Origin: an uncultured Alphaproteobacteria bacterium
GTDB lineage: Bacteria; Pseudomonadota; Alphaproteobacteria; Rs-D84
NCBI GenBank assembly: GCA_963540515.1
Contig: CAUTNA010000003.1
Location: 7,301-71,300 of the forward strand
Reading direction: 5' to 3'
DNA length: 64,000 nt
How positions within the stretch are numbered: the first letter of the stretch is position 1; the number at the start of each line of letters is the position of its first letter. The notes beneath the pieces were generated by a model. The model did no database searches, was not told where the DNA came from, and worked only from the letters and a program-made list of their open reading frames with translations. Positions 15,379 to 47,653 of this stretch are shown here, piece by piece. Position numbers and translations under genes: made by a program.

Positions 15379-15597
15379 TTATTTAATACCGACACTAAAC
15401 TCATCACCATAAGAGGCTACTGATTGACCGTTTATTGTACACTGTATATCTTCATAACCATTTTTTACTTGTACTTTCTTCATTACTGTACTTGTTATAA
15501 GTCCTCCAGCAGTTCCTAATACTACTCCCGCTATACTGTCTGATAATAATCTGTGTTTATTAAATTTTCCATCTTTATCTTTCCATACACTTGTCTT
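15379..15597 (-). repeat. 219-nt conserved C-terminal coding module, copy A
   Basis: The reverse complement aligns base-for-base with 30501-30719 (about 5 mismatches by eye) and with 34054-34272 (about 10 mismatches). Confidence 0.9.
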
Positions 15598-16209
15598 TAA
15601 ACCCTTCAGTAATGATTTCATTTTATAATAAGCCAATGCTGCTTTTGCTTTATTGTATAATTCATCTGGTATAGTATTTTTAAACAGAATTGCTTGAGAA
15701 TATCTGTATTTTGAACTCTCTACATCGAAAACTATTTGTCCAAGATTAAAACTTATAGTAGTTACATCTTTTGGTAAAGAATCTGAGGTAAAAGAATTTC
15801 TTAATATATTATACATTTCGTTGAGCCTTCCTTGATTCAGGACATAAGTGTTATATTGTTGAGGTCCAGAAAAACTAGCAGAAGCTGTTAAAAAAATAAG
15901 ACTATTATCTTTTATTCTTTTACTGAATCTTCCAACTACATCTTTCACTAAAGGTGCACATTCAGGATCTTCTTCAACTTTAGATACATCAATTCCATGA
16001 TATATTCTTAAAAGTATAATCTTATCATTTTCACCATAGCCATAACATAGTTGACCATTTTTTTTATACTTTACTTCTCTGGTCTTGTTAGGAATCGTCC
16101 AAAAGGTTTTTTCTTTCTCAATTTCTGGACTATCTCGAGTAATAGAAAAAGCAGAATAAAAAGGCAAAATGAATAATAATGATAAAAATAGTATTAGTTT
16201 AATTCTCAT
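15379..16209 (-). CDS. Secreted protein, copy A of the constant-tail family
   Basis: Signal peptide MRIKLILFLSLLFILPFYSAFS and a unique head. The C-terminal 72 aa KTSVWKDKDGKFNKHRLLSDSIAGVVLGTAGGLITSTVMKKVQVKNGYEDIQCTINGQSVASYGDEFSVGIK are shared with 29703-30719 and 33595-34272. Confidence 0.75.
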   Translation of the reverse strand: MRIKLILFLSLLFILPFYSAFSITRDSPEIEKEKTFWTIPNKTREVKYKKNGQLCYGYGENDKIILLRIYHGIDVSKVEEDPECAPLVKDVVGRFSKRIKDNSLIFLTASASFSGPQQYNTYVLNQGRLNEMYNILRNSFTSDSLPKDVTTISFNLGQIVFDVESSKYRYSQAILFKNTIPDELYNKAKAALAYYKMKSLLKGLKTSVWKDKDGKFNKHRLLSDSIAGVVLGTAGGLITSTVMKKVQVKNGYEDIQCTINGQSVASYGDEFSVGIK

Positions 16210-16334
16210 TTTATATGATCCTATAATTTACAGACAATTATATCAAATTTAATCCACTATTAAAATTAAAATTTTATCATTTGAAAATAATTTATTTAAA
16301 TGTTAATCTTAGATCTAAGCAAGGTTATTATACT

Positions 16335-19014: not shown

Positions 19015-21495
19015 ATGGATACCAGCAGTATAAGAAATCAGCTTTTATTATTCTTCAGACAAATGCATTTCAATAATATGCCAGATGATGTAATGGCTCG
19101 TTTTAAAGATTTTTCTAAAAACGATGACTTTACTAAAAATATGGAGAATTGGAAAAAGGATTTATTGGATCAAAACGGTAATCCTAATGATTTGCCAGAC
19201 TTAAGTTCTTCTTTATCAGATGATGAATGGAAATATTTATATAAAGTTTTTAGAGATACTTTTCGTAGTATGGATGAAAATAAAGATTCCTTTTTGGATG
19301 ATAAAAAAGTTTCAACTTTTTTCAATGACAGTTTTGGACCTAATAAATTATTTTCAAGTGGAAATTTGTCTCCCAGATTTATTCAAGAATTAAGTTCTTT
19401 ATATAATAAAATAGAACAAGAAGCATTAAGTTTAAATAATGGTGATACTGCTAAGTTCTATAAAAAAATATTAGGTGATTTAAAAAGAGATATCTCTAGT
19501 AATCTTTTAAATAATATAAAGACAGGAAATATTAATATAAACGATGAAAAAGATATACAGAAGTTTTTAAGTGCGGTTAGGGATTCTCTACCATATGATG
19601 ATGAACATCAAGCTGAGTATTCATTAATAAATGACAAGTTATATGATATTGGACAAATTTTAGAGCAAGACAGAGAATTTATTAATCAAAATAAATTAGA
19701 GTTTTTTAAAAAAAATTACAAATCTATCTTTAAAACTCTTTATACTAATAAAAATATTCGTAATACCTTTTCAAATAATGGTGGAAGCTTAATAACAAAC
19801 AGAATAGAAAGAGCTGTTGAATTAACTGATTATGATAATGAACAAAGTGAAGATTATATTCCCTCAAAAAAACAAGATAAATTGACATTTTCTCAAGAAT
19901 TGAAAAAATGGAAAGATGATACTTACGAAGATTATCTTGAAAAATATATGACTTTAAAAGGTGATAGATTATTTATCTCTTTTGAAGCAAAAAATATAGT
20001 TAAAGCAATAAGTTCTGCAAAGATTAAACCAACCGATGGTTTAGGTAAAATATTAGAAGAATCAGGAAAAATAAAATCAAGTTTAAAAACTAAATCTCCT
20101 AAAAGTTTGATAGCTTTTAAATATTTTGAAGAAATTTTTTCTGATTTTAAAGAAACAATGCCAAAAGCTTTTAATGGAGCTCTTAAAAATGGCAGTCAAT
20201 TGTGTGCTATTGTTTCTGAGATGATTGTATCAGCTATAAAGAAAAATAAAGTGCATGAAGCAAAAGTCGCCATGGAAATTTTAGCTATTATAAGATATGG
20301 CTATACAACAAGTAAAACAATGGATGCTTTGTCAAAAGATAGTTTTCAAATATTTTCAGATAAAGGACTTTCTTGGAATAAAAATGAGGGTGTTCAGTAT
20401 GTAACAAAAGCTTTTGATAAAACTTTAAAGTTTGCAACTTTAGGAATTGGTTATGGTATAACTGCACTTTCAAATAGTATTAATAGAACAGGAACAAAGT
20501 TTAAAGGTGCATCAAGTAAGTTAAAAAAAGTAATTAAACAAAGTGATTTGGAAAGAGATAATAATATCAAAGATTTAAAGAATAAAATAAATATAAACCA
20601 AGACGAAATATCGCAAGTTCAATCATATACATCAAGTTTGATTAACAAAAAACAAATCCTAGATAGTAAAATACAAGATAATAATACTCAGATTAATAAT
20701 TTAAATAGAGACGTAACTAACTTGGATAATGCAAAAAGTAATTTGAATAATAAAGTAGATCAAGCAAAAGAGCAAATTAAGAAATTAACTGATTATATAA
20801 ATAAAGTAGATGAACAGAAAAAAAAGTTAGAATATAAACTAAATGAAGTAAATGCTCAGATTCAAGAGGCAGATAATCGCATACAATTCTTAAATAATAA
20901 AGAAAATATGTTAAATGATAAGATAAGTAAAACAAATGATACAAAAAAAATTAATAGATTAAATGGGTATGTTAGTGTTCTTGAATCTAAGAAAAATGAA
21001 AAAATAAATGAGATAAACAATAATAATGCAAAAATTAGTAAATTGAATTCATATATTGTTAGTATTGAGACTCAGATAAATAAAAGGAAAAATGATATAA
21101 ATAATGCTAATAATCAGATTAATAATTTAAAAAATTATATTACTAGTATTGAATATCAGATAAACACAAGAGAAAATAGAATTGAAAGATTAAATGAAAG
21201 GAATGATAAGTTTCAAAACTATGTCAATACTATAGAGAATAAAACAAATGAGAAAAATGACTATATAAATTTCTTAAATGATAAGGGAAATGAATTAAAT
21301 GATAATCTTCAAGATTTAAATGCTATAGATAATTTAGAAAAATATAAAGAGTTAATGGCTTATTGGGATCTTGTAGTATCAACAAAATTGGATAGTTTTA
21401 GATTTGGATCAAAGAAATTAAAACAAAAGATATTTGATCTTAATAAAAATAATTTTATACAAAATTGGAATTCAAATTATCAAATGGTGGCATAA
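19015..21495 (+). CDS. Large (826 aa) hypothetical protein with Asn-rich coiled-coil C-terminal third
   Basis: Long uninterrupted ORF. The N-terminal ~500 aa have no motif I recognise. Residues ~520-770 show heptad-like N/I/L/K periodicity. Confidence 0.7.
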   Translation: MDTSSIRNQLLLFFRQMHFNNMPDDVMARFKDFSKNDDFTKNMENWKKDLLDQNGNPNDLPDLSSSLSDDEWKYLYKVFRDTFRSMDENKDSFLDDKKVSTFFNDSFGPNKLFSSGNLSPRFIQELSSLYNKIEQEALSLNNGDTAKFYKKILGDLKRDISSNLLNNIKTGNININDEKDIQKFLSAVRDSLPYDDEHQAEYSLINDKLYDIGQILEQDREFINQNKLEFFKKNYKSIFKTLYTNKNIRNTFSNNGGSLITNRIERAVELTDYDNEQSEDYIPSKKQDKLTFSQELKKWKDDTYEDYLEKYMTLKGDRLFISFEAKNIVKAISSAKIKPTDGLGKILEESGKIKSSLKTKSPKSLIAFKYFEEIFSDFKETMPKAFNGALKNGSQLCAIVSEMIVSAIKKNKVHEAKVAMEILAIIRYGYTTSKTMDALSKDSFQIFSDKGLSWNKNEGVQYVTKAFDKTLKFATLGIGYGITALSNSINRTGTKFKGASSKLKKVIKQSDLERDNNIKDLKNKININQDEISQVQSYTSSLINKKQILDSKIQDNNTQINNLNRDVTNLDNAKSNLNNKVDQAKEQIKKLTDYINKVDEQKKKLEYKLNEVNAQIQEADNRIQFLNNKENMLNDKISKTNDTKKINRLNGYVSVLESKKNEKINEINNNNAKISKLNSYIVSIETQINKRKNDINNANNQINNLKNYITSIEYQINTRENRIERLNERNDKFQNYVNTIENKTNEKNDYINFLNDKGNELNDNLQDLNAIDNLEKYKELMAYWDLVVSTKLDSFRFGSKKLKQKIFDLNKNNFIQNWNSNYQMVA
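20959..21294 (+). repeat. Four tandem 28-aa (84-nt) degenerate repeats inside the coiled coil
   Basis: LNGYVSVLESKKNEKINEINNNNAKISK / LNSYIVSIETQINKRKNDINNANNQINN / LKNYITSIEYQINTRENRIERLNERNDK / FQNYVNTIENKTNEKNDYINFLNDKGNE. Confidence 0.8.
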
Positions 21496-24202: not shown

Positions 24203-24571
24203 TTAAATATTACAGTTATAAGCATAACTTGATGGCATTTTATATAGATTATCTGTAACTGCATCAACAAATACTGGTATTAATCCAAGAAAAAATCCAG
24301 GAAATACATCAAGAAAAATTGCAACAACATTAGGCTTATTGTTTATATTTACCTGAGGACAATCAGAGCGTGGGTTTGAAATTGATAAATTATTATCTGA
24401 ATAAACAACTAAATTTTTATTTGATGATATTTTATAAATTCCAGAACTGGAAGTTACTGTTATAGTATCTTTTGAATTATTAAATATATTCGTTTCATGG
24501 TTTGAACCAATTCCCATAGCACCACATCCACTAAGAGATACAATAATCATTAAATTTAATAATTTTTTCAT
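24203..24571 (-). CDS. Small lipoprotein
   Basis: Lipobox MKKLLNLMIIVSLSGC. Last gene of the five-gene same-strand cluster after obg. Confidence 0.6.
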   Translation of the reverse strand: MKKLLNLMIIVSLSGCGAMGIGSNHETNIFNNSKDTITVTSSSGIYKISSNKNLVVYSDNNLSISNPRSDCPQVNINNKPNVVAIFLDVFPGFFLGLIPVFVDAVTDNLYKMPSSYAYNCNI

Positions 24572-27976: not shown

Positions 27977-28029
27977 CTAAAAAACTTGATTTTTCCAGTT
28001 ATTTAATTAAAATGACTATGTCACTTTTG

Positions 28030-28380
28030 TGATGATAATTCTGAACTCGTTGCGGAATAACCGTTTTGGACTGGGGGGCAGTTCCCCACAGCTCCACCAT
28101 CTTTAAGGGTGAGTTTAGAGATTATAAATAAGTTTTATAATTTGTTTATGATCTTCTGGGGCTGAAATTAGTATCGACAGACGTAATAAAGGCAAATCGA
28201 CTGAATTCGGGTAGTTTCGTAAGAACTGATAAAAACTGAATGGCGATAGAATCGCTGCGAACGATACAGTTCGCTTTGCAATGGCTGCCTAATTAGGTTT
28301 TGAGACATTACTGGCAATTGTTGGTAGTCTCGATTGCTTTTGCGGGGTTTCCTATCACCTGGCAACAGAAGATAGGGTTT
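28030..28380 (+). ncRNA. ssrA: Two-piece (circularly permuted) tmRNA gene: acceptor piece ending CCA at 28099, ~58-nt intervening segment, coding piece starting GGGGCTG at 28158
   Basis: The 3' piece ...TGGGGGGCAGTTCCCCACAGCTCCACCA has a T-arm plus acceptor strand. The downstream 5' end GGGGCTGAAATTAGTATCGAC pairs with CAGCTCC, including the G3:U70 wobble. The tag ORF ends MAA-TAA. The outer boundaries are approximate. Confidence 0.8.
28257..28292 (+). other. tmRNA tag reading frame ANDTVRFAMAA-stop (the resume codon may be the preceding GCT)
   Basis: GCG AAC GAT ACA GTT CGC TTT GCA ATG GCT GCC TAA. The AND... start and ..AA end are typical of alphaproteobacterial tags. Confidence 0.7.
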
Positions 28381-29702: not shown

Positions 29703-30719
29703 ATGAAATTTATAAGAATATTTTACATATTTTTAATTTGTGTTTTATCTTTACATTCTTTTGGACAATCAAAAGAATGTAGATTTGAAAAGATTGATGA
29801 AAGTACTACTATTACCAAAAATTTATTATTATCAGGAGTATCTCCTGATCTAGTTGTCTATATTTGTGAAAATACTTGTATAAACGATATTGAAGGTAAT
29901 AGTACTGATAATATTGATTATATTTGTTTATGTGAAAAAAATGATTGTACTTGGTTTGCCCATAGAGATAGAAATGGAAAATCTGAAGGTAATAAATATA
30001 TTGGAACAAATAGTGTTTGGATTTGTGATATAGGAGATCATGAAAAAATGTTTAATATCAAGGGGTTATTAAACGATAATGCTGTAAAAATATATTTATC
30101 AGAAGTTAAATATTTTTGTAATTCTTTAATTCCAAATGTCACAGAAGGTTTTTACAAGTATAATAATAGATTTTTCGCTGATAGAGAAAGTTTTGTATAT
30201 AAAAAATATTCAGATATTAATAGATTAGGAGGTTATTTGTATTCTAGTATTTTAATCAGTAGAAAAGAAAATAAAAATAATGAAGAGATATTTTATAAAA
30301 TAATGTCTAATTCAAATTATGATGAAAAAGAAAAAATAGATCTATTGCAACAACAATTAGATGGAAAACAAATTAATCTTAAAGAAAATGATGTGGCAAA
30401 AAATCAAATATCTAATAAAGAACAGAATTACAATATTAAAGATATAAAAGGAAAAATAGAAAATATAAAAGATAGAATATTAGAAGTACAAAATAAATTA
30501 AAAACAAGTGTATGGAAAGATAAGGATGGAAAATTTAATAAACACAGATTATTATCAGACAGTATAGCGGGAGTAGTATTAGGAACTGCTGGAGGACTTA
30601 TAACAAGTACAGTAATGAAGAAAGTACAAGTAAAAAATGGTTATGAAGATATACAGTGTACAATAAACGGTCAATCAGTAGCCTCTTATGGTGATGAGTT
30701 TAGTGTCGGGAGAAAATAA
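29703..30719 (+). CDS. Secreted protein, copy B of the constant-tail family (Cys-rich head)
   Basis: Signal peptide MKFIRIFYIFLICVLSLHSFG, Cys-rich head, Asn/Lys-rich coiled linker. It then carries the same 72-aa tail as 15379-16209 and 33595-34272, ending SVGRK. Confidence 0.75.
   Translation: MKFIRIFYIFLICVLSLHSFGQSKECRFEKIDESTTITKNLLLSGVSPDLVVYICENTCINDIEGNSTDNIDYICLCEKNDCTWFAHRDRNGKSEGNKYIGTNSVWICDIGDHEKMFNIKGLLNDNAVKIYLSEVKYFCNSLIPNVTEGFYKYNNRFFADRESFVYKKYSDINRLGGYLYSSILISRKENKNNEEIFYKIMSNSNYDEKEKIDLLQQQLDGKQINLKENDVAKNQISNKEQNYNIKDIKGKIENIKDRILEVQNKLKTSVWKDKDGKFNKHRLLSDSIAGVVLGTAGGLITSTVMKKVQVKNGYEDIQCTINGQSVASYGDEFSVGRK
30501..30719 (+). repeat. 219-nt conserved C-terminal coding module, copy B
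   Basis: Near-identical to the reverse complement of 15379-15597 and to 34054-34272. Homology begins at codon AAA ACA AGT GTA TGG and ends at the stop codon. Confidence 0.9.
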
Positions 30720-30749
30720 CTTAATAATAAAAAAATGAAAGGAGTAGAA

Positions 30750-31133
30750 ATGAACAAATATATATTAGCTTTATTGATTTTACCAATTGCTTTTACATTA
30801 AATGATGCAATGGCTAAAATAAAAAATTGTCCTTGTGGTAATGTTATTGGGGATTGGGATGATTACAATATTGATGGTTTACATAAAAAAGATAAAAGTT
30901 TGTTTCGTATAGATGTAAGCAATAAAAAGAGTAAAAATCTTGTCGCTAATTTTGCAACTTGTAGGTGTAGTGCAAATTGTGTTAAATCTAAAAAAAGATC
31001 TTCTGTTGTATTAACAAGTAATCCACCAGTTTATGTTGATTATGTTTGTTCAAAAAACAAGAATGGATATATGTGGCTTAGAACCGAGATAAGAGGAAAA
31101 AAGGTTAAAAATAGCAAACCAATGCCATTATAA
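30750..31133 (+). CDS. Small secreted Cys-rich basic protein
   Basis: AGGAG SD 6 nt before the ATG at 30750; signal peptide MNKYILALLILPIAFTLNDAMA; CPC and CRC motifs. Begins 30 nt after copy B. Confidence 0.55.
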   Translation: MNKYILALLILPIAFTLNDAMAKIKNCPCGNVIGDWDDYNIDGLHKKDKSLFRIDVSNKKSKNLVANFATCRCSANCVKSKKRSSVVLTSNPPVYVDYVCSKNKNGYMWLRTEIRGKKVKNSKPMPL

Positions 31134-31161
31134 TTATCTTTCAATAAAGATAAACAATTTA

Positions 31162-31190
31162 AAAGACACATTTTTGTGTCTTTTTATTTT
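31162..31190. terminator. Bidirectional terminator between 30750-31133 and prfB
   Basis: gacaca-tttt-tgtgtc flanked by A-run and T-run. Confidence 0.6.
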
Positions 31191-31204
31191 AGATAAAAAC
31201 TCTA

Positions 31205-32279
31205 TTAAATTATACTTTTTAAGTATTCCAGCATAAAGTTATCTATATCACCATCAAGAACTTCATCTGAATTTGTATTTTCAAAACCAGTGCGTACATC
31301 TTTTACTAATTTATAGGGGTATAAAACATAGTTTCGTATTTGACTTCCCCATTCAATTTTTTTTTGGTTTTCTTTTTCTTTGTCTTCAATTTCTTTTCTT
31401 TTCTTTAATTCTAAGTCATAAAGACGGCTTTTCAATATTTTCATTGCCATTTCTTTATTTTGAATTTGAGATCTTTCATTTTGGCATGTTACAACAGTAT
31501 TTGTTGGAATATGTGTTATTCTTACTGCACTGTCTGTTTTATTTACATGTTGTCCACCAGCACCACTGGACCTATATGTATCTATACGAAGATCTTTATC
31601 ATTTATTTCAATTTCTATATCGTCATTAATATCTGCCCAGACATCTATTGAGGCAAAACTTGTTTGACGCTTTCCATTTGCATTAAATGGAGATATTCTT
31701 ACAAGTCTATGAACTCCAATTTCTGATTTGAGCCAACCATAAACATTTTTACCTGATATTTTATAGGTTATATTTTTAAGTCCAGCAGTATCCCCAATCC
31801 TCTCGTCCACAACTTCTAATTCAAAATTATGCCTTTCTGCCCATCTTTTATACATTCGTGATAACATTTCTGCCCAATCTTGTGCCTCAGTGCCACCAGC
31901 ACCTGCTTGAATAAATATAAAAGCATTATTGTCATCTATAGTTTCTTTGAAAAGTGTCAAAATTTTTAAATTATTAATTTTCTCAGATAAAATATTTATA
32001 TCTTTTTCAATTAAAGTATCATTTGGGTCTAATTCATATAATTCTTTTAAATAATTAAAGTCTGATTCTAAACTTAAAAAATCTGTTAAAGTTTTTTCAA
32101 GGTTTGATTTTTTCTGAAGTATTTTTTTAGCTTTTTCTGCATCTGTCCAAAGTTCTGGATTGTTTATATTTTTGTTTAATTCTTCGATTTCTTTCTCTAT
32201 ATAAGGAATGTCAAAGAAACCCCCTTATTGATAAGAGATTATCTTTTAAATAGTTAAAAATATTTATATCAACTGACAT
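31205..32279 (-). CDS. prfB: Peptide chain release factor 2, requiring the programmed +1 frameshift
   Basis: Frame 0: MSVDINIFNYLKDNLLSIRGFL then TGA. The +1 frame continues DIPYIEKEIEELN... into the track ORF 31205-31960, which carries the GGQ motif (SGAGGQHVNKTDSAVR). Confidence 0.95.
32210..32225 (-). promoter_or_regulatory. RF2 autoregulatory recoding site (SD-like AGGGGG, then CTT TGA C)
   Basis: The minus strand reads AGG GGG TTT CTT TGA C. This is the canonical slippery CUU-UGA-C with an internal Shine-Dalgarno 3 nt upstream. Confidence 0.9.
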
Positions 32280-32388
32280 AAGATTTATATTAATTAAAAA
32301 CTGATAAAAATCAATTAATATAAATTAATATTTTATATTTTATTAATTTATGATAAAATCTATAATTAAGATAATGTAGGTTAAGGTT

Positions 32389-33585
32389 GTGATTTTTTCT
32401 AAATTATATATTTTTTCTTTTTTATCTCTATTTTTTATGCAATCCAGTTTTGCTGTATCTGCTGGTATGATTGGAGTTCCAGATCAGGCACGAGGTGCAG
32501 TTGATAACTCACGAGGTAAAAGAATGACTCAAATGTATTTTAGTAGTCAAAGAAAAAACTATTATTTACTAAATCAACCTGATGTTGATAGTGCATGCAG
32601 AGATAAAATATATAAATGTTTATCTAATTATTGTGGTGATGTAACTGCGGTTCCTGGTCAAAGAGGCACAAGATGTACATATACATCTGAAACTGAATTA
32701 TATAATTATGCAACTTTATGTATTCAAAAAGATATAAGTGTATTACTTCCACAATATCAAAATGATTCAATTAATCGTGATGGAGGCGGTGGATCTAATA
32801 CTGCTGCACATTTATGTCCAAAATATATACAACAAGAAGTTTTATCTTATTTATCTATGTCAAATATGGCGGATCAATTAAGTAAATCAAGATCAAGTTT
32901 ATGTATTCAAAGAAAGCAAGAATTAGAAGCTGCACTTGCATGTCATGCTGTATCAGTCAGTTATGGTAATGAAACAACTAGTATGCTTACCAGCAGACTT
33001 ACTGATTCATGTGGAAATGGTGTACCAGGAGGATCCGCTGAAATGGTATCTCGTTTTGCAAATGCTGGAAATCTTGGGGCAAATATTTGGGGTTGGGCTG
33101 AAAAGATTGTAAGTATGGAAATGAATAAAAAAGGGGCAGATTGGAGAAATGCAATTGATTCAATACTTGCAAATTATACTAATAGAATGAATTTGGCTTG
33201 TGGAGATAATATGAAATTAAATACAGTTTCTAAGGAATCAAATTCTTCTATTAATCAAAATGGTATGGTTAATAAAACAAGTTTTCCAAATGCGAAAAAA
33301 GAAGTTTTTAATAATTTATGGTTAAAAGTTCAAAGTATGATTGATATTTATGATAGTGAAATTGCTAATCAAGTAGTTCAAGCAGGACTTACAAACGATA
33401 TTACAACACAGAATGAATTTTTATCTACTTCTCAAATGGATAATATGCAGAAGGCGTATAAAAGTGGAACAAAAGTTTTTATACTTTCAGATTCTGCAAG
33501 ATGTTTTATAACAGTATTTGGAGAACTTTCTGATGATGAAAAATCATTGGTTGCCCAAACATTTGCAGGGTGTGTAAATAGGTGA
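32389..33585 (+). CDS. Secreted Cys-rich hypothetical protein (398 aa)
   Basis: GTG start after AAGG; signal peptide LSLFFMQSSFAVSAG; about 14 Cys. The stop lies 9 nt before the start of copy C. Confidence 0.6.
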   Translation: MIFSKLYIFSFLSLFFMQSSFAVSAGMIGVPDQARGAVDNSRGKRMTQMYFSSQRKNYYLLNQPDVDSACRDKIYKCLSNYCGDVTAVPGQRGTRCTYTSETELYNYATLCIQKDISVLLPQYQNDSINRDGGGGSNTAAHLCPKYIQQEVLSYLSMSNMADQLSKSRSSLCIQRKQELEAALACHAVSVSYGNETTSMLTSRLTDSCGNGVPGGSAEMVSRFANAGNLGANIWGWAEKIVSMEMNKKGADWRNAIDSILANYTNRMNLACGDNMKLNTVSKESNSSINQNGMVNKTSFPNAKKEVFNNLWLKVQSMIDIYDSEIANQVVQAGLTNDITTQNEFLSTSQMDNMQKAYKSGTKVFILSDSARCFITVFGELSDDEKSLVAQTFAGCVNR

Positions 33586-33594
33586 GGTATATTT

Positions 33595-34272
33595 ATGAAA
33601 AAGTTTTTAATTTTTATGTTTTTTATATCTTTTTCTGTTTTGGATACGAAAGGTGTGTTTTCAGAAGAGCTTAACCAACAAGATTCTATTCAGAATTTAA
33701 ATGACAGTTTAAGAGAAGATAATGAAAGTTTAAGATCTCAAATTACTCAAAAAGAGGAGGAAATAGAACAAAAAGAACAAGAATTAGCTGAAAAGCAAAG
33801 TGAACTAGAAGCTGCACAACTAGAAGCTAAAGAAAAAGGTAGTGAGTTAGAAGATACAAAATCAAAATTACGAAAATTGCAGAGAAAAACAAAGATATAT
33901 AGTAATACAGATAATTGGCCTAATCCAAAAGGACATGATACAAGTATAACACCTATTAGTCTTGGTGTAAGTACTAAAGATTCAAATAAAAATAACAAAG
34001 AAATTTCAAATAAGAAAATTGAAGAATTAAGTAATAAAATAAAATCGGGTTTAAAAGTAAGTGTATGGAAAGATAAAGATGGAAAATTTAATAAACACAG
34101 ATTATTATCAGACAGTATAGCGGGAGTAGTACTAGGAACTGCCGGAGGACTTATAACAAGTACAGTAATGAAGAAAGTACAAGTAAAAAATAGTTATGAA
34201 GACATACAGTGTACAATAAACGGTCAATCAGTAGCATCTTATGGTGATGAGTTCAGTGTCGGTATTAAGTAA
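33595..34272 (+). CDS. Secreted protein, copy C of the constant-tail family (coiled-coil head)
   Basis: Signal peptide MKKFLIFMFFISFSVLDTKG, Glu/Lys/Gln coiled coil, then the same tail (KVSVWKDKDG...EFSVGIK). Confidence 0.75.
   Translation: MKKFLIFMFFISFSVLDTKGVFSEELNQQDSIQNLNDSLREDNESLRSQITQKEEEIEQKEQELAEKQSELEAAQLEAKEKGSELEDTKSKLRKLQRKTKIYSNTDNWPNPKGHDTSITPISLGVSTKDSNKNNKEISNKKIEELSNKIKSGLKVSVWKDKDGKFNKHRLLSDSIAGVVLGTAGGLITSTVMKKVQVKNSYEDIQCTINGQSVASYGDEFSVGIK
34054..34272 (+). repeat. 219-nt conserved C-terminal coding module, copy C
   Basis: Aligns without gaps to copies A and B. The differences are mostly third-position synonymous. Confidence 0.9.
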
Positions 34273-34296
34273 ATTATATTTTTTAAGGACTTTTAT

Positions 34297-34326
34297 AAAC
34301 TCAACCTTTGTGTTGAGTTTTTTTAT
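34297..34326 (+). terminator. Rho-independent terminator after copy C
   Basis: aaactcaac-ctttgt-gttgagttt followed by a T-run. Confidence 0.6.
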
Positions 34327-34778
34327 TTATTATCTAAATCTATAATTTTATTAATATTTATATTATTTATAAAAGTTTCATCATGAGATACAATCAAAAT
34401 TGCACCTTTGTATTGATTTAATGCATCTTCTAAAACTTCAATACTTTTAATATCTAAGTTATTAGTTGGTTCATCAAGTAACAATATATCTGCATCACTT
34501 GCAAAAGCTTTATTAAGTTCAATTAATTGTTGTTCTCCTCCACTTTTATTATCAGATATATTTATCTGATTTAATAAATAAGTGCTTGCATTTGAAATAA
34601 TTTTACTACTGGATATTTCTAATTTATTTGATAGAAGCTCTAGGAGAGTGCTTTTTCCAACTCCATTTTCCCCAATGATTGCGACTTTTGATTTATCATT
34701 AAAACTGATTGATAAATCATAAAATAAACATTCTTGCCCACAAGAAAAAGAAACATTTAATAAAGATATTGATTTCAC
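34323..34778 (-). CDS. Unusually short stand-alone ABC ATPase domain protein (151 aa)
   Basis: GTG start; Walker [10 protein letters not shown], signature SGGEQQ, Walker [13 protein letters not shown]-loop VSHD. The spacing between Walker A and the signature is much shorter than in normal ABC domains and resembles an ABC-F half. Confidence 0.6.
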
Positions 34779-38516: not shown

Positions 38517-41500
38517 TTAAATAATATCTTTATATTTATTGAAAAATAAATTAATTCTATCTAGTACTTTATTTGTTTTTTTATCTCTTTTATTATCTTT
38601 TGTAAATAATGATATTGGTGGTAATATTTCGCTAAAATTTGTACCTACATCTTGTACAAATCCATTTTTAAAAGAATTTTCAATAAAATTATAAGTTTCT
38701 TTTTCTTTTAATTTTTCTTCTGATATTATTTTATCTAGATCAATTTTTCTTTGTTGGTTTATATAATTTTTCCATTCTTCATATATATCAGAATTTGGTA
38801 TTAAAGAATTTATAAAATTAATAATTAAATCTTTTTTACTTCTAAGCTCTATACTTGAATCTATAGATTTTTCTATATTTATAATAATTTCCTTATCCTT
38901 TTTATCTGTTTCTTGATATTTCTTTACCAACATAAGAATATAATCTATATTTATTTCAACTTGTTTTATTAATTCTATTTCAAAGACAAGGTCATCATTA
39001 ATATTTTCAGTATTACTTTTATTTTTGTTTCTCCACGATTCATACAATTCAATATACATACTGTGATAATCTTGAGTATCTCTTTGAGTTAATATTTCTT
39101 GTCCTTTAAAATCATCAAAAGTTTCCAGTATATTTCTTAACTTTAAAATATTTCCATATAATTTAATAAAATCTTTTTGGTCTTTTTCTGTATTTATCAT
39201 TTGTCCAACAGGATATTTATTTTGTAATTCTGAAATTAAATCTAGATAGGATCTTACATCAAGACCTTTATCATCTTTATAACCATACTTATAATATTCA
39301 TCAAATGTTTTTAATAAGACAATACCTTTTGCATCCTTATTCCCAAATAGAGCGATACTTTTATTTGTTTCTTCTTCAAGATTTCTAAAACAAACAATAT
39401 TTCCAAATGCTTTTATACTGTTTAATATTCTGTTTGTTCTTGAATATGCTTGCAGTAGTCCTTGCATTTTTAAATTTTTATCAACCCATAAAGTATTTAA
39501 TGTTGGTGCATCAAATCCAGTTAAAAACATATTAACAACAATAAGTAAATCAATATCTCTGTTTTTTACTCTTAAAGATACATCCTTATAATAATTTTGA
39601 AACTTATCACTGGAAGTATCATAAGTAGTATTAAATAGTTTATTGTAATCTTTTATTGCTTCTTCTAAAAAATCCCTACTGCTTTTATCAAGCGCTTCTG
39701 TGTTTTCTGGATTTTCATCATCAAAATTATCTATACTATTGTCATCAGTATTGGGTGAATAACTGTAAATAAGAGCAATTTTTAATTTTTTATTAATATC
39801 TTGTTCCATTTGTTTTTGAAACTCTGTATAGTATAATTTTGCCGCCTCAATTGAAGAAACCGCGAATATAGAATTAAATCCTGTCATTCTTATTTTTTCT
39901 TTTATTTCTTCAATTTTTTGTTTTTTTGATTTAGATATTTCTTTTATATTGGTCAATTTATTAAATTCGTAGGAACTTGTATTTCTTTTAGTATATTGAT
40001 TAAAGTGGGTTAGAATATAATCAACTATTTTTGATATCCTTAGAGGGGACATTAAAGCTTTCTCTCTGTTTATATCCTGAACCTTTTCATCTTTTATATT
40101 TTCCTCTGCTTTCATAGTAGAATGATAATAAACCTTAAAAGGTAAAACATTTTTATCATTAGTAGCATCCACAATTGTATAAGTATGCAGTTTATCTCCA
40201 AATATTTGCTCTGTTGTTTTTAAAATAGTTGTTCCACTTTTATAAGCGTTTTCAGAAAAAATAGGTGTTCCTGTAAATCCAAATAAATTATATTTTTTGA
40301 AATTTTTTATAATAAGACTGTGTTGATCTCCAAATTGGCTTCTATGACATTCGTCAAATATAAAAACAATGTGCTTATTATAGACAGGATGATCTTTATT
40401 TTGTTTTATAAAATAAGTAAGTTTTTGGATTGTTGTGATTATAATCCTAGCATTGGAATCCTCTAATTGACCTTTTAATACAGCGGTGCTTGTATTACTG
40501 TTTGCGGCACCTTTTTCAAAATTGTCATATTCTTTCATTGTTTGACAATCAAGATCTTTTCTATCAACAACAAATAAAACTTTATCTATTTCAGGAATTT
40601 CTGTTGCAAGTTGTGCAGTTTTAAAACTTGTTAATGTTTTTCCGCTTCCTGTTGTATGCCAAACATAACCACCCGCATTAATAGTTCCATAAGTTTTATT
40701 ATTTATTGAAATTTTTATTTTATTTAAAATTTGTTCCGCAGCAAATATTTGGTAAGGTCTCATAACTAATAAAATATTATCAGTCGTAAATACACAATAT
40801 TTTGTTAAAATATTTAAAATCGTATGTTTTGCAAAGAAAGTTTTTGTAAAATCTATTAAATCTGTAATAGGTTTATTTTTTGAATCTGCCCACCAACTTG
40901 TAAATTCAAAACTGTGACTTGTTTTTTTGTTTGATGTTTTATTTAATTCTTTTATATGGCTTTCTCTGGTAGTATTACTATAATATTTTGTATAAGTTCC
41001 ATTTGAAATTACAAAAATTTGTATATATTGAAATAATCCATATTCAGACCAGAAACTTTCTTTTTGATACCTGTTTATTTGATTAAAAGCTTCTTTTATA
41101 TCAATACCCCGTCTTTTTAGCTCTATATGAATAAGAGGAAGACCGTTAACCAATATAGTTACATCATATCTATTTTTGTGATTTCCTTCTTCTGCAACAT
41201 ATTGATTTATAACTTGTAAATAATTATTATGGATGTTGTCTTTATCTAAAAGTTTAATATTTTTTGTTGTTCCATCTTTAAGTTTATATGTTTTAGTAGA
41301 ATCTTTTTGTATTGTTTTTGTCTTTTCTGCTATTGCGTCTTTTCCAGTTTCTTGACCTTTTATGTGTGTTTTAAAGAACTCATTCCATCCATCATCATCA
41401 AATTTATAATTATTCAATTTTTCTATTTGATGTCTCAAATTAGTTATTAATTCTTCTCCTGTATGTATTGGTAAATACTCATAAGCTTGAGATGTAAGTT

Positions 41501-41642
41501 GTTTAATAAATTCTTTTTCTAAATCGGATTCTGTTTGATAATTTGTTTCTTTAGTTCTTTCAGAGTTATATTCTGAAACAATTGTACTTTCTGGATTTTC
41601 TGAAATTAATTTATATTGTTTATCCATATCTGTTGGTTCCAT
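38517..41642 (-). CDS. hsdR: Type I restriction enzyme R subunit (1041 aa, EcoR124-like size class)
   Basis: Walker A HTTGSGKTLTSF, DEAD-box FIFDECHRSQFG. The N-terminal nuclease region and C-terminal helical domain are typical of HsdR. Abuts the hsdS stop. Confidence 0.95.
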   Translation of the reverse strand: MEPTDMDKQYKLISENPESTIVSEYNSERTKETNYQTESDLEKEFIKQLTSQAYEYLPIHTGEELITNLRHQIEKLNNYKFDDDGWNEFFKTHIKGQETGKDAIAEKTKTIQKDSTKTYKLKDGTTKNIKLLDKDNIHNNYLQVINQYVAEEGNHKNRYDVTILVNGLPLIHIELKRRGIDIKEAFNQINRYQKESFWSEYGLFQYIQIFVISNGTYTKYYSNTTRESHIKELNKTSNKKTSHSFEFTSWWADSKNKPITDLIDFTKTFFAKHTILNILTKYCVFTTDNILLVMRPYQIFAAEQILNKIKISINNKTYGTINAGGYVWHTTGSGKTLTSFKTAQLATEIPEIDKVLFVVDRKDLDCQTMKEYDNFEKGAANSNTSTAVLKGQLEDSNARIIITTIQKLTYFIKQNKDHPVYNKHIVFIFDECHRSQFGDQHSLIIKNFKKYNLFGFTGTPIFSENAYKSGTTILKTTEQIFGDKLHTYTIVDATNDKNVLPFKVYYHSTMKAEENIKDEKVQDINREKALMSPLRISKIVDYILTHFNQYTKRNTSSYEFNKLTNIKEISKSKKQKIEEIKEKIRMTGFNSIFAVSSIEAAKLYYTEFQKQMEQDINKKLKIALIYSYSPNTDDNSIDNFDDENPENTEALDKSSRDFLEEAIKDYNKLFNTTYDTSSDKFQNYYKDVSLRVKNRDIDLLIVVNMFLTGFDAPTLNTLWVDKNLKMQGLLQAYSRTNRILNSIKAFGNIVCFRNLEEETNKSIALFGNKDAKGIVLLKTFDEYYKYGYKDDKGLDVRSYLDLISELQNKYPVGQMINTEKDQKDFIKLYGNILKLRNILETFDDFKGQEILTQRDTQDYHSMYIELYESWRNKNKSNTENINDDLVFEIELIKQVEINIDYILMLVKKYQETDKKDKEIIINIEKSIDSSIELRSKKDLIINFINSLIPNSDIYEEWKNYINQQRKIDLDKIISEEKLKEKETYNFIENSFKNGFVQDVGTNFSEILPPISLFTKDNKRDKKTNKVLDRINLFFNKYKDII

Positions 41643-42764
41643 TTATATTTTATTAAAAGATAAAAGTTTATTACGATAGTATTTATATTGTTGTTGTCTT
41701 GCATTTATTTCAGCAGGAAGTCCAATAGAAATATCATTAACTAAAGACTCAAACTTATCTAATATATTTACTATTCTTTCTTGTTCGGAGAGTGGAGGTA
41801 CTGGTACTTTAAAATTAGAAAATTTTGAAATCCATTGTCTTGAATGTTCTAAAGTTGAATATTTTATAATTTTCATAATATAGTAAATATATTTAAAGCA
41901 AAAATCTTCATTTTTTGGTTTTAAAATTTTTATAGCAGATGACTTAACTTTAAAATTAAAATCAACCCAATGAAAAGATGTTGTAAAGTCATCAAATATA
42001 ATTACAGGATTATTTTTATCTGCTATAAAAATCCCATTTTTTTCTTTTGTATAACCTAATATAAAAGTTTTTCCTGCTGTTAATACAGGTACTCCTTCAT
42101 CTTTAAGATTATCTTTTTCAATTATAAACTTAGAAGGTTGTATATAATCTAATAATTCATCTAAAGAAATCCAAGGGACGATATTATCTTGTTCTGTACC
42201 AAAATCTAATAGTTTATCTCTGTAATAATGATATTGTTTTTTTCTTAATACCAGCTCCGCCTCCAGCTCCGCCTCCAGCTCCGTAAAAGTATCTAATATA
42301 TTAACTATCTCTTCCTGTATAGCAATAGGGGGTATAGGTATTTCGATCGTTTTTAAGTTTTGTTGATTTAGCTTTGGTGGTAATCCTCTTACAAGTGAAG
42401 AAATATCAACAGTTGATAGGTAATAATATAAATATCTTAATTTAATAATATTTTCTTTTTCTTTTAATACATGAGCATGATTATTTACCCATATTTTGCC
42501 AATAGACCAATTTAATACAGGTGTTTTATCATCGTTTATAACACTTCCATCTTCACCAATTAATAAATATGTACCATCAAATATATAATCATTAACATAA
42601 TCTTGTATACCATTTGCCCCATAATATGGGTATTGCCCTTTTATTCTCTTATCTTTTGAAACAGGTAATCTTTGATTATCTAATATGACGCATATATCAC
42701 CCAATTCCTTATACTCGACCCCATCACTACAATACTCTTTTATCAATTCTTCTATTTTACTCAT
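41643..42764 (-). CDS. hsdS: Type I R-M specificity subunit
   Basis: Two target-recognition halves, each followed by a conserved helix (...ELEAELEAELVLRKKQYHYYRDKLL and ...ARQQQYKYYRNKLLSF). 8-nt overlap with hsdM. Confidence 0.9.
   Translation of the reverse strand: MSKIEELIKEYCSDGVEYKELGDICVILDNQRLPVSKDKRIKGQYPYYGANGIQDYVNDYIFDGTYLLIGEDGSVINDDKTPVLNWSIGKIWVNNHAHVLKEKENIIKLRYLYYYLSTVDISSLVRGLPPKLNQQNLKTIEIPIPPIAIQEEIVNILDTFTELEAELEAELVLRKKQYHYYRDKLLDFGTEQDNIVPWISLDELLDYIQPSKFIIEKDNLKDEGVPVLTAGKTFILGYTKEKNGIFIADKNNPVIIFDDFTTSFHWVDFNFKVKSSAIKILKPKNEDFCFKYIYYIMKIIKYSTLEHSRQWISKFSNFKVPVPPLSEQERIVNILDKFESLVNDISIGLPAEINARQQQYKYYRNKLLSFNKI
42251..42283 (-). repeat. Tandem 12-nt repeat (2.75 copies) encoding (ELEA)n in the central conserved region of hsdS
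   Basis: The plus strand reads ccagctccgcct ccagctccgcct ccagctccg, conspicuously GC-rich in an AT-rich gene. Confidence 0.9.
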
Positions 42765-44355
42765 CTTGATTCTCTAAATCTGTAATTATTGCGTCTATTT
42801 TGTTTCTTAAATCATTTTGTTTTATTACAATTTTCTTTATATCTTCATTCAATACCTTAATATCAATTTTTTCTTTTTCGTCTTTTTGTTCTATATAACT
42901 GGAAACAGATAAATTATAGTCATTATTCTTAATATCTTCATTTGAAACCAGTTTTGTAAAATGCTCTGTATTTTCTCGCTTAATATATTCGTTTAAAATA
43001 TCTTCAATATTTTTATCTGATAGTTTATTTTTATTACCAGAATGTATGAATTCATTCGTTGAGTCAATAAATAATACTTTATTATCTTTCTTACTTTTTT
43101 TCAAAACTATAATACATGTCGCAATAGATGTCCCAAAAAATAAGTTTGCTGGTAATTGTATAACACAATCAACAAAGTTATTATCTATCAAATATTGTCT
43201 TATTTTTTGCTCTTTACCACTTCTATAAAGAACTCCTGGAAACTCAACTATTGCTGCTGTTCCATCTACTGCAAGCCAAGAAAGCATATGCATTGTAAAT
43301 GCAAGGTCTGCTTTACTCGAAGGCGCAAGGACTCCCGCAGGAGAAAATCTTTCATCATTTATAAGTAATGGATTTTTATCACCTTCCCAAGAAATAGAGT
43401 AAGGTGGATTTGATACTATTGCTTCAAAAGGTTCATCATCCCAGTGTTTTGGATTTATTAAAGTATCTCCCAATGCAATATCAAATTTTTCATAATTAAC
43501 ATTATGTAAAAACATATTTATACGGCATAGATTATAAGTAGTTATATTTATTTCTTGAGCATAAAAACCGTTCTTAACATTATTTTCCCCTAATATTTTG
43601 GCAAATTTTAATAATAAAGATCCAGAACCTGCGCAAGGATCATAAACTTTATTTACTTCTTTTTTAAAATTTCCTTCTTTAGTTGTATCAACCAATGTTA
43701 ATTTTGTAAGTAGTGTTGAAACTTCTTGAGGGGTAAAAAATTCACCACCGGATTTACCAGCATTTGATGCGTACATTGTCATTAAGTATTCGTATGCATC
43801 ACCAAATAAATCAATAGTATTATCTGTAAAATTACCAAGTTTTAAATCCCCGATTGCATTTAAAATTTTTACTAATTTTGCATTTCTTTCAGATATATTA
43901 GATCCTAATTTATTGCTGTTTACATCGATATCCGCAAATAATCCTTTAAAATCATCCTCACTTTGTGCACCTTGAGTTGAAAGTTCAATATTTCTGAAAA
44001 CCTGTGATAAAGTTTGATTTAAATCTTTGTTATTTTTTGCATTATTTCTTACATTACAAAATAATTCACTTGGTAAAATGAAAAAACCCTTTTCTCTAAT
44101 AAAAGATTGTTTTCCAAGTTCTGCTAGTTCATCGGTTTGTTTTGTGTAATCAAAATCAACTTTCCCAACATCGTATTGGTTCTTATTTGCATAAGATATA
44201 ATATTTTCGCTGATATACCTGTAAAACAAAAATCCTAAAACATAAGACTTAAAATCCCATCCATCAACAGAACCTCTTAAATCATTAGCAACTTGCCATA
44301 TAGTTCTGTGTAATTCTGATCTTTCTTGTTCCTTTATCATCTTAATTTTCTCCAT
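42757..44355 (-). CDS. hsdM: Type I R-M N6-adenine DNA methyltransferase subunit
   Basis: HsdM N-terminal LHRTIWQVANDLRG, AdoMet motif YDPCAGSGSLL, catalytic IVSNPPYS. Confidence 0.95.
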   Translation of the reverse strand: MEKIKMIKEQERSELHRTIWQVANDLRGSVDGWDFKSYVLGFLFYRYISENIISYANKNQYDVGKVDFDYTKQTDELAELGKQSFIREKGFFILPSELFCNVRNNAKNNKDLNQTLSQVFRNIELSTQGAQSEDDFKGLFADIDVNSNKLGSNISERNAKLVKILNAIGDLKLGNFTDNTIDLFGDAYEYLMTMYASNAGKSGGEFFTPQEVSTLLTKLTLVDTTKEGNFKKEVNKVYDPCAGSGSLLLKFAKILGENNVKNGFYAQEINITTYNLCRINMFLHNVNYEKFDIALGDTLINPKHWDDEPFEAIVSNPPYSISWEGDKNPLLINDERFSPAGVLAPSSKADLAFTMHMLSWLAVDGTAAIVEFPGVLYRSGKEQKIRQYLIDNNFVDCVIQLPANLFFGTSIATCIIVLKKSKKDNKVLFIDSTNEFIHSGNKNKLSDKNIEDILNEYIKRENTEHFTKLVSNEDIKNNDYNLSVSSYIEQKDEKEKIDIKVLNEDIKKIVIKQNDLRNKIDAIITDLENQDE

Positions 44356-46587: not shown

Positions 46588-47649
46588 ATGAGTATTATTT
46601 ATATGGTTTTAGCGCTTTTAATTGTTATGGGCGTTGTTGTATTTATTCATGAACTTGGTCATTTTTTAGCAGCCAGACTTTCAAAGGTTAAAGTTAATAC
46701 TTTTTCTATTGGTTTTGGTCCTGCTCTCTTAAAATGGCATGATAAGAAAGGCACTTGTTGGCAAATCTCTCTTCTTCCTTTTGGTGGTTATGTTTCTGTT
46801 TATGGTCAAGAAGATATGTTTAATAGAAAAAAGTATCAAGAGCTTTCAAATGAAGAAAAAAAAGGTCATTATTTATCTGCTCCTGCTTGGAAACAGTTTA
46901 TAATAGTCTTGGCTGGTGTTTTTATGAATTTTGTTTTAGCTTGGTTTATATATTCATCACTATTTGCATTTAAGCCAAAACAAATACAACTTCCTGTTGT
47001 TGGACAAGTTATTCAAGAAAGTTCAGCTTTTAAAGCAGGTATAAAACCAGGAGATACTATTCTTACAATTGATAATAAAAAAATAACTCATTGGGGAGAT
47101 ATAATAATTGCAAAAGAACTTGCCTCAAATAGGGATGCTAAAATAGCATTGGTTCGTAATTCAGAACTTGTTCAAGTAAGTGTTTCTCCCGCAGAAAAAT
47201 GGGGATTGATTGCAGACGGTAGTAAAGTTGAATTTCATAAAAAAGGTTTTTTGGGTGCGTTATATTCAGGTGCAAGAGAAACTTACAGACAATCAAAAAC
47301 ACTAATTACAGTATTAAAGCAAATAATTACAGGAGAAAGATCAACTAAACAACTTGGATCTTTTATTAGTATAGCTCAAGTTTCAGCAAAGGCTATGGAA
47401 ACTGGTTTGGTTGCACTTCTTTCAATAATTGCTCTTATATCTGTAAACTTAGCGGTTGTAAATTTACTTCCAATACCTGCGGTTGATGGAGGGTATTTGA
47501 TGGTTTTGTTAATTGAAGCTATCATTCGCAGAAAGTTAGGTGGTAGAGGAATGGAATTTACTATTCTTATTGGTTGGTTTTTTATAATATCTCTTATGTG
47601 TCTTACTATGTGGAATGATATAAGTCGTATATTTGGAATATCTTTATAA
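46588..47649 (+). CDS. rseP: RIP zinc metalloprotease RseP
   Basis: HELGH in the first TM (VFIHELGHFLAARL), a PDZ region, and C-terminal NLLPIPAVDGG. Confidence 0.9.
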   Translation: MSIIYMVLALLIVMGVVVFIHELGHFLAARLSKVKVNTFSIGFGPALLKWHDKKGTCWQISLLPFGGYVSVYGQEDMFNRKKYQELSNEEKKGHYLSAPAWKQFIIVLAGVFMNFVLAWFIYSSLFAFKPKQIQLPVVGQVIQESSAFKAGIKPGDTILTIDNKKITHWGDIIIAKELASNRDAKIALVRNSELVQVSVSPAEKWGLIADGSKVEFHKKGFLGALYSGARETYRQSKTLITVLKQIITGERSTKQLGSFISIAQVSAKAMETGLVALLSIIALISVNLAVVNLLPIPAVDGGYLMVLLIEAIIRRKLGGRGMEFTILIGWFFIISLMCLTMWNDISRIFGISL

Positions 47650-47653
47650 GTTT

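Follow-up and report, generated by a model that had tools for sequence, protein, structure and literature searches.

Several bacterial systems mark unrelated exported proteins of one genome with a common C-terminal element. The GlyGly-CTERM/rhombosortase, PEP-CTERM, LPXTG and MYXO-CTERM signals are borne by otherwise unrelated Sec-exported proteins and combine a short motif with a hydrophobic helix followed by a basic patch. Trimeric autotransporter adhesins (YadA-like) are ordered as signal peptide, variable head, coiled-coil stalk and constant C-terminal anchor, and their assembly depends on oligomerisation. A Gly-rich, marginally hydrophobic GxxxGxxxG helix is found in exported envelope proteins such as SlyB/PCP, YfgH and the Rickettsia 17-kDa antigen, glycine-zipper lipoproteins that form oligomers and are sometimes combined with OmpA-like domains (YiaD). 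Variable, often Cys-rich heads on a near-identical C-terminal membrane segment characterize the Helicobacter Hop/Bab proteins, Anaplasma Msp2/P44 and the variant-specific surface proteins (VSPs) of Giardia, the last of which have an invariant C-terminal membrane helix followed by a short tail. Here, we describe a C-terminal module, hereafter called the tail, which resembles each of these systems in part. It occurs in three genes of a 64,000-nucleotide stretch of DNA (the window) from an uncultured alphaproteobacterium of the lineage Rs-D84 (assembly GCA_963540515.1, contig CAUTNA010000003.1, positions 7,301 to 71,300 of the forward strand). We propose, with moderate confidence, that the tail is an Rs-D84/Enterousia-specific module of ~90 residues for membrane attachment and parallel oligomerisation of Sec-exported envelope proteins.

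The three open reading frames (ORFs), present exactly where a preliminary description of this DNA had placed them, and their tails are as follows:

29703-30719, plus strand: family member A (338 aa), with signal peptide, orphan globular head with 8 Cys, coiled-coil linker and tail
30498-30719, plus strand: tail of A, 73 codons and stop; repeat D1/I1, 94-97% nucleotide (nt) identity
33595-34272, plus strand: family member B (225 aa), with signal peptide, Glu/Lys coiled coil without Cys, and tail
34051-34272, plus strand: tail of B, repeat copy, with a terminator-like hairpin downstream at 34297-34320
15379-16209, minus strand: family member C (276 aa), with signal peptide, divergent Pal/OmpA_C-like head with 2 Cys, coiled coil and tail
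15379-15600, minus strand: tail of C; 15600 is also the exact breakpoint of an allele replacement between strains

Each N-terminus carries basic residues followed by a hydrophobic stretch, as is typical of signal peptides. A repeat finder detected near-identical copies of 226-230 nt at 30498-30723, 34051-34276 and 15371-15600, with 94-97% nt identity, and a 226-nt match at this level cannot arise by chance. In the three-way DNA alignment, identity sets in at the codons for L-K-(T/V)-S-V-W-K, at the same codon in each gene, and ends with the stop codon. Outside the block the DNA of the three genes does not align on either side, the ungapped downstream identity of 0.33-0.38 corresponding to background at 27% GC. 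The sharply bounded common tail with unrelated flanks, reported earlier, was thus recovered by both methods. The heads of A, B and C show no BLAST similarity to each other, in agreement with the earlier claim of unrelated heads behind Sec-type signal peptides. Whole-gene duplication, which the same description had named as the simple alternative, is therefore ruled out as the origin of the three genes. The tail profile matches A with E=4e-43, while the head of A is an orphan whose sole homologue is the conspecific protein P0264 (96% identity); C is 100% identical to protein P0146.

The tail extends far beyond the window. An exhaustive profile search of 1.84 billion representative proteins retrieved 954 clusters at E≤1e-3, of which 926 remained at E≤1e-10. 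The family has sharp limits, and almost every listed protein ends no more than a few residues beyond the match. When one genome was scanned for each species, tblastn confirmed at least 311 loci. Among the matches listed, the genomes with tail relatives are only gut and rumen metagenome-assembled genomes labelled Candidatus Enterousia or uncultured (Alpha)proteobacteria, and the lineage of the tail-bearing genomes is the order Rs-D84. Two further sequences with the tail family, L071 (CAYIZJ010000007.1) and L077 (OZ246409.1, a 716,531-bp chromosome), are both titled 'uncultured Muribaculaceae bacterium' and are probably mislabelled Rs-D84-type genomes. Throughout, the source name of the family proteins is 'hypothetical protein'.

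Searches of Pfam and NCBIfam with all three proteins and their neighbours returned nothing on the tail at E≤1. Matches to PHROGs were marginal and limited to B: two lie on the coiled coil, and a third (E=0.003) covers residues 133-212, tail included, and concerns a family whose function is unknown. Profile searches of the PDB with the tail and with the full-length Cys-rich family gave no match, and a scan of viral contigs found no relative. An exact tail 32-mer had 0 matches in a metagenome scan; a same-species JGI contig does contain this 32-mer, its sample being evidently outside the scanned set. The module was not described in the literature retrieved on Enterousia, Rs-D84 or C-terminal anchors with a glycine zipper. 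The preliminary description had considered that the tail might prove to be a well-characterised domain or be absent from related genomes. The search with a hidden Markov model (HMM) of the tail, which it had suggested, led instead to a catalogue of 954 clusters, and the tail is a constant module on unrelated Sec-exported heads across the family. It is a lineage-wide module without a described relative, and no curated family accounts for it.

The anatomy and conservation of the module were derived from 221 distinct tails. It begins with about two coiled-coil heptads, with I28/A31/L35/I38/F42 at the a/d positions (F or L at the last), which lead into the motif S-V-W-K-x-x-E-G-x-F-N-T-A-R-L-x-S-D-S, where W..G.FN..RL.SD is invariant. 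The hydrophobic helix that follows comprises 19 uncharged residues, I-A-G-V-V-L-G-T-A-G-G-L-I-T-S-x-V-V, and holds a GxxxGxxxG glycine zipper whose glycines G66, G70 and G74 are kept in 203-221 of the 221 tails; entropy is ~0-0.5 bit on every face of the helix. The C-terminal end consists of K-K-N-Q and then a β-rich stretch of about 30-33 residues with a turn-forming G/N/D spacing, alternating hydrophobics and one invariant Cys, the final residue being Q, K or R. In all, the invariant residues of the tail are W, G, F, N, R, L, S, D, A, V, G, C, V and D. The constant module of 72 aa noted earlier is therefore real, but at the family level it is longer than the DNA block of the window, reaching ~90 aa with the ~2 upstream heptads. 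Between genomes, tail identity at codon positions 1/2/3 is 0.75/0.81/0.42, and conservation therefore acts on the protein and not on the DNA. A minimal member of 126 aa, P0015, is composed only of signal peptide, helix and tail, indicating that the tail works without a head.

Comparison with the known C-terminal signals shows clear differences. Unlike the CTERM and LPXTG signals, the tail has ~33 near-invariant residues after the basic patch and a conserved coiled coil before the motif; it lacks their signature motifs and model matches, and no cognate sortase-like gene was found beside ~90 family genes. The LPXTG motif of sortase A substrates occurs in no tail, no NCBIfam or Pfam model matched, and the host, which encodes BamA, is diderm. 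The GG pair of the tail lies mid-helix and is followed by ~33 residues, with no match to a TIGR03501-type GlyGly-CTERM model at E≤1, and the Pro-Glu-Pro motif of PEP-CTERM/exosortase substrates is absent from the tails, again with no model match. The C-terminal domain (CTD) of the type IX secretion system (T9SS; TIGR04183, Por_Secre_tail) gave no model match either; the tail is mostly helical in the AlphaFold2 model, and the host is alphaproteobacterial. For autotransporters of types Va and Vc (PF03797, PF03895), no Pfam match was obtained at E≤1, and only ~33 residues follow the helix. The earlier remark that the tail is not recognisable as LPXTG, PEP-CTERM, GlyGly-CTERM, a T9SS CTD or an autotransporter barrel thus agrees with the Pfam and NCBIfam searches.

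The resemblance to trimeric autotransporters concerns the order of the parts and the proposed oligomerisation. However, the ~33 post-helix residues are too few for four transmembrane strands, the terminus is not aromatic, the disulfide-rich heads are unfavourable for autotransport, and the YadA_anchor and Autotransporter models did not match. Glycine-zipper lipoproteins have an N-terminal lipid anchor and a two-helix hairpin, whereas the tail family has one C-terminal helix and no lipobox, and the Glycine zipper 2TM/SlyB-like families PF05433, PF13488, PF13436 and PF13441 gave no match at E≤1. In Pal, MotB and YfiB, an OmpA_C-like fold is tethered to the membrane via a linker, as would be the case for C and ~10% of the family heads, but their anchor is N-terminal while that of the tail family is C-terminal. 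As for Hop/Bab, Msp2/P44 and VSPs, recombination between their paralogs homogenises the constant part while heads vary by strain; this likeness is an analogy only, and these proteins have no sequence homology to the tail family, for which surface exposure is only a candidate property. With respect to programmed antigenic variation, there are no silent cassettes or further tail or head copies within the window, and no notable tandem or homopolymer tracts at A, B and C that would be evidence of programmed switching.

A signal-peptide-like N-terminus is found on ~80% of the heads, and the signal peptides are of the ordinary type with A-x-A-like cleavage sites. The number of Cys in the mature head varies from 0 to 44 but is even in 203 of 216 proteins (94%, with a crude signal-peptide cut), and the tail contains exactly one Cys in 214 of the 216. 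The window also encodes a thiol oxidase:

52713-53558, plus strand: membrane-anchored DsbA-like thiol oxidase (Pfam DSBA, E=7e-19)

The even head Cys, the single tail Cys and this gene together indicate that the heads are folded with disulfides outside the cytoplasm and that the tail Cys is not paired with the head. Judging from its sequence, the DsbA-like oxidase would supply the periplasmic disulfides that the Cys-rich heads require. In five loci of other genera, an OmpA-like member lies directly downstream of the ortholog of this dsbA-like gene.

Typical large members have repeated 4-Cys modules followed by a coiled coil. In P0027, residues ~150-370 form tandem modules of ~35-40 aa with four Cys each (C..G.W....C.C....G.C), which resemble an EGF-like stalk but have no sequence match in the PDB. 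Of 103 members examined with Pfam, 7 contain an OmpA domain and 13 a DUF5874 match. A profile of the OmpA-like head subfamily matched Pal, YfiB and OmpA chains of the PDB at E ~1e-10, and OmpA/Pal-like heads make up ~10% of the family heads. The head of C, described at first as merely mixed, appears to be a divergent domain of this type:

15787-16065, minus strand: OmpA_C/Pal-like region of C, residues 49-141 (hhalign)

Its comparison with the OmpA-like head subfamily gave 97% probability (hhalign), although it has no direct Pfam match and lacks the motif Asp of G.(T/A)D..G...YN..LS..RA. At least part of the family would thus have periplasmic-type heads, and this argues against a reading of the tail as a device of pure surface display or as a toxin.

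The tail DNA is homogenised within genomes, with an nt identity of 76-100% as compared to a mean of 62% between genomes, where just 0.27% of pairs exceed 90%. Neighbouring paralogs have third-codon-position identities of 0.9-1.0 over a common block of ~200-310 nt. In six contigs of the window species the tails are not grouped by locus: the B tail of contig L088 differs from that of B in the window at 8 sites and from that of C at 4, and the A tail of L089 differs from that of C' in L083 at 5 sites and from that of A in the window at 7. Such a distribution is the signature of ongoing gene conversion between loci, and the proteins form a multigene envelope family whose constant anchor is homogenised by gene conversion. 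At another locus (L001, 8473-10381), a dnaA-adjacent Cys-rich member is divergent from a 126-aa head-less member, and their tails are 100% nt-identical.

The heads are indeed interchangeable, as proposed earlier, since conspecific strains bear different heads on the same tail at the C and B loci. At the C locus the exchanged segment is:

15601-16268, minus strand: head and 5' untranslated region cassette of C, swapped in conspecific contigs L083 and L084 (blastn)

These two contigs encode P0114 instead, and its OmpA-like head shares only ~27% identity with the head of C, while the flanks have 92-98% nt identity (99.5% aa identity for Tgt and 99.6% for the SIMPL protein). In blastn, the two breakpoints coincide exactly with the first tail codon (15600) and with a site 60 nt upstream of the start codon (16269). 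At the B locus, contigs L089 and L090 follow the window at ~96-97% identity as far as 33661, which lies in the signal peptide of B, and collinearity resumes at 34298; in between, the two contigs carry the 386-aa member P0147 and an extra exported gene of 205 aa. The pre-tail, the tail and the start of the gene following P0147 match the A locus (window 30441-30792) with 88% identity, and in L089 the 5' end of the 132-aa gene located after A has been duplicated along with the A-type tail. Contig L088 retains A and B, but their heads are more diverged than the adjacent genes, with the head of B 88.8% identical versus ~98% for the flanking genes. In these exchanges, the tail is one of the homology arms.

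Other strain differences occur next to B. The gene for an ABC-F-type ATPase is reduced in the window to a 151-aa ORF (34323-34778, minus strand), ~0.9 kb being missing through a deletion or in a pseudogene, while the protein has 452 aa in the siblings (L088 14623-15981, L089 11872-13230). The type I restriction-modification locus at 38517-44355 (minus strand), near the B locus, also differs between conspecific strains (compared with L089 16929-21161), since in L089 and L090 the hsdR/hsdM set is a different one, lies in the opposite orientation and is accompanied by a resolvase-like gene.

What speaks for parallel oligomers or for a common docking partner is the coiled coil together with the glycine zipper, the odd Cys and a helix that is invariant on all its faces. 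We propose that the signal peptide would direct the protein through Sec and that the head would fold in the periplasm with DsbA-made disulfides. The a/d-heptad helix and the GxxxGxxxG helix would then pair or bundle at least two chains and be seated in the membrane. The tails of all paralogs could co-assemble or dock to one common partner, which in this proposal would account for the near-invariance of all helix faces and of the last 33 residues. Two arrangements fit these features. In the first, the tail would be a type I inner-membrane anchor with its Cys-bearing end in the cytoplasm; in the second, the whole tail would be exported, oligomerised through tail-to-tail disulfides and associated with the outer membrane. 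The invariant Cys would accordingly be cytoplasmic in a type I inner-membrane span and otherwise form a tail-to-tail disulfide. Gene conversion between loci would keep the tail DNA uniform, and the tails together with the conserved 5' end or intergenic DNA would act as homology arms for head replacement between strains.

Several observations weigh against this proposal of a membrane-attaching and oligomerising tail. The hydrophobicity of the zipper helix is only marginal, with a Kyte-Doolittle value of ~1.4; simply summing the Hessa scale over the consensus 19-mer gives ~+4.4 kcal/mol, far from classical single-span anchors, with control sequences used for the comparison. The helix flanks hold 2.8 Lys and Arg on each side, without any positive-inside bias. 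Owing to this marginal hydrophobicity and lack of charge bias, a classical stop-transfer in the inner membrane is not assured. AlphaFold2 gave for the tail monomer a mean local confidence (pLDDT) of 57 with 27 sequences and 64.5 with 126 sequences, the global score (pTM) being 0.29-0.30. Replacement of heads between strains is more typical of surface-exposed than of periplasmic proteins. Finally, both alleles of the C locus lack the Asp of the OmpA-type peptidoglycan-binding motif, so that their binding to peptidoglycan is uncertain. The 126-sequence model, of low confidence, contains two helices, at 6-27 and 42-74 (the latter long), and a hairpin at 80-90; its Foldseek comparison with the PDB gave one meaningless match (E=7.5). 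The Foldseek and Pfam checks suggested in the preliminary description have thus provided no identity for the tail. The G-D-E-F-R-V sequence near the C-terminus recalls a β-signal (loose G-x-x-Hy-x-Hy), but it was not relied on, the motif being short and the end non-aromatic.

Among the other explanations, the one that survives best takes the tail for a sorting signal: a dedicated machinery would move folded, disulfide-bonded heads to the surface and tether them there, creating a strain-variable surface repertoire, with a logic like that of GlyGly-CTERM/rhombosortase with the type II secretion system, or of the T9SS CTD. The layout of motif, hydrophobic helix and basic patch recalls C-terminal sorting signals. 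Moreover, head swaps among conspecific strains and a faster evolution of the heads than of adjacent genes are what exposed proteins would show, and in typical heads a coiled-coil stalk bears repeated 4-Cys modules. The genome of a relative encodes a secretin and a TcpQ-like protein, and the marginal hydrophobicity suggests that the helix could exit the Sec channel. On the other hand, the ~33 strongly conserved residues after the basic patch are unlike all known CTERM signals, no sorting-signal model matched at E≤1, no conserved processing enzyme accompanies the ~90 family genes, OmpA/Pal-like heads are periplasmic domains, and the 126-aa member carries no cargo at all. We therefore consider this explanation rather unlikely. 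The same holds for its broader form, a new diderm sorting/anchoring system in which the tail would carry disulfide-rich variable heads to the surface and hold them as disulfide-linked oligomers, a scheme that we regard as a tentative one.

The dedicated sorting or translocon system of the preliminary description found no support in the gene neighbourhoods either, where no sortase- or translocon-like partner was detected and the surroundings are housekeeping genes, one ortholog being adjacent to dnaA. Surface display is possible, yet it was not supported by the tests made, and the Pal/OmpA-like heads speak against pure display. What was supported overall is the idea of a constant anchoring tail with interchangeable heads.

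It is even less probable that the tail is a soluble periplasmic oligomerisation domain, with the Gly-rich helix in the core of a bundle capped by β-hairpins and no contact with the membrane. Such a domain would agree with the coiled-coil heptads directly upstream and the invariance of every helix face, with the marginal hydrophobicity and the lack of charge asymmetry, and with a single invariant Cys suited to an interchain disulfide in the oxidising periplasm. However, a run of 19 uncharged residues between D and KK is what a membrane helix classically looks like, zippers of the GxxxGxxxG type are characteristic of packing between membrane helices, and AlphaFold2 gave no compact soluble fold.

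A membrane-damaging glycine-zipper toxin or pore module, with variable heads that bind receptors in a bacteriocin-like manner, appears very improbable. The variability of the heads would suit it, and glycine zippers have reportedly been found in a number of pore-forming toxins and contact-dependent bacteriocins. Nevertheless, no immunity-like small membrane protein adjoins the family genes, which lie next to housekeeping genes or genes for exported Cys-rich proteins. In addition, synteny with dnaA is kept by one ortholog throughout the order, some heads are OmpA-like, PHROGs matches are marginal only and a scan of viral contigs found no relative. Nor do the loci look like those of polymorphic toxins (contact-dependent inhibition (CDI) systems, Rhs, MafB), in which a constant N-terminus precedes a variable C-terminal toxin with an adjacent immunity gene; in the tail family this polarity is reversed. 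The polymorphic-effector option of the preliminary description is hence unlikely, given this polarity, the missing immunity-like neighbour, the syntenic core ortholog and the ~10% of Pal/OmpA-like heads. Lastly, a DNA element (recombination site, mobile element end or RNA) that is coding only incidentally would have sharp homology boundaries and near-identical synonymous sites within a genome, as seen here, but it is effectively refuted by the codon-position pattern, with synonymous sites saturated between genomes (0.42) and positions 1/2 kept at 0.75/0.81, the block being moreover always in frame up to the stop codon, without an overlapping Rfam family and without transposase genes or terminal repeats around it.

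The window has ~27% GC and carries rho, era, queA, tgt, obg, rml genes, dnaB, a type I restriction system, RseP and BamA. The features next to the family genes, together with BamA, are:

47633-49903, plus strand: BamA, with 5 POTRA domains and Omp85
31205-32278, minus strand: prfB, with a canonical +1 frameshift site (AGGGGG..CTT TGA C) near 32210-32225, between A and B
30735-31133, plus strand: exported protein of 132 aa with 6 Cys and no tail, 16 nt 3' of A
32389-33585, plus strand: exported protein of 398 aa with 12 Cys and no tail, 10 nt 5' of B in the same transcription unit, 98% identical in L088
16281-17129, plus strand: exported Cys-rich protein of 282 aa without a tail, divergent from C

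The presence of BamA shows that the host has an outer membrane. A two-piece (permuted) alphaproteobacterial transfer-messenger RNA (tmRNA) at 27982-28379 (plus strand; Rfam RF01849, 146 bits) independently places the window in Alphaproteobacteria. Together with the housekeeping genes and BamA, this RNA indicates that the window is chromosomal DNA of a diderm alphaproteobacterium. Look-ups of the exact products of A, C and the 132-aa protein returned no match, and that of obg only a 1.8-kb contig.

The 132-aa gene is probably co-transcribed with A, and a terminator-like hairpin at 31161-31184 follows the pair. Between strains, the 282-aa protein shows 86.5% aa identity, as against 96-99.6% for neighbouring genes, and the 132-aa protein 88.6%, so that both change more rapidly than the housekeeping genes nearby. 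It is possible that these tail-less exported proteins beside A, B and C are partners of the tailed ones. The gene syntenic with prfB in L088 encodes PCRF and RF-1 domains, and the order A-prfB-B is kept in sibling strains. The flanking of prfB by two copies, pointed out in the preliminary description, is therefore a stable arrangement, but prfB itself is an incidental neighbour. In the loci of the Genome Taxonomy Database (GTDB) set, a family member lies beside dnaA, mostly directly downstream, in about 48 of 79, and one ortholog is thus a fixed core gene, syntenic across the order. Beside ~90 family genes we found no conserved partner or processing gene, the only recurrent features being this dnaA-region synteny and, upstream of members of the OmpA-like subfamily, a dsbA-like gene. 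Nor did the neighbourhoods reveal a dedicated operon, the genes of the family being placed among housekeeping genes.

A 122-aa protein (24203-24571, minus strand) carries a classical lipobox, L-S-G-C, so the lipoprotein pathway is apparently kept alongside the tail family; this rules out the tail as a general replacement for lipoprotein anchoring. A basic, extremely Lys/Ala/Pro-rich protein of 100 aa (11816-12118, plus strand), kept in L083, is built of 54-nt repeats (KPVAKPATAKKPAVKKV), ends with CGCSSC and resembles nucleoid proteins of the histone H1-like type. The 826-aa protein at 19015-21495 (plus strand), kept in L088, has no signal peptide and no Pfam domain, and its C-terminal ~300 residues form an Asn/Lys-rich coiled coil. 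Two adjacent genes downstream of bamA gave weak VirB8-like matches (E ~1e-3), and a gene of the MotA/TolQ/ExbB family lies near the window end (jointly 50174-51489 and 61913-62689, both plus strand).

Rs-D84/Enterousia bacteria are common uncultured inhabitants of the gut and rumen. Their genomes are below ~1 Mb and lack flagella, the tricarboxylic acid cycle and respiration, and they are unable to make amino acids and nucleotides as well as fatty acids (PMC12306168); hence, they must live off partners. The tail family probably represents a large share of their envelope proteome, with several copies per genome and one fixed beside dnaA, and the tail offers a one-step marker to list these proteins in any metagenome. 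It also points to a conserved tail-to-tail or tail-to-partner interaction, which could be targeted or used for cargo display, and it is a natural example of a coding segment that doubles as a structural module and a homology arm for head swaps. If the tail is an outer-membrane or surface anchor, it would be a new class among the few C-terminal anchoring devices of bacteria. If it belongs to a surface sorting system, it would provide these small-genome gut symbionts with a variable surface coat, a bacterial counterpart of the VSP coat of Giardia.

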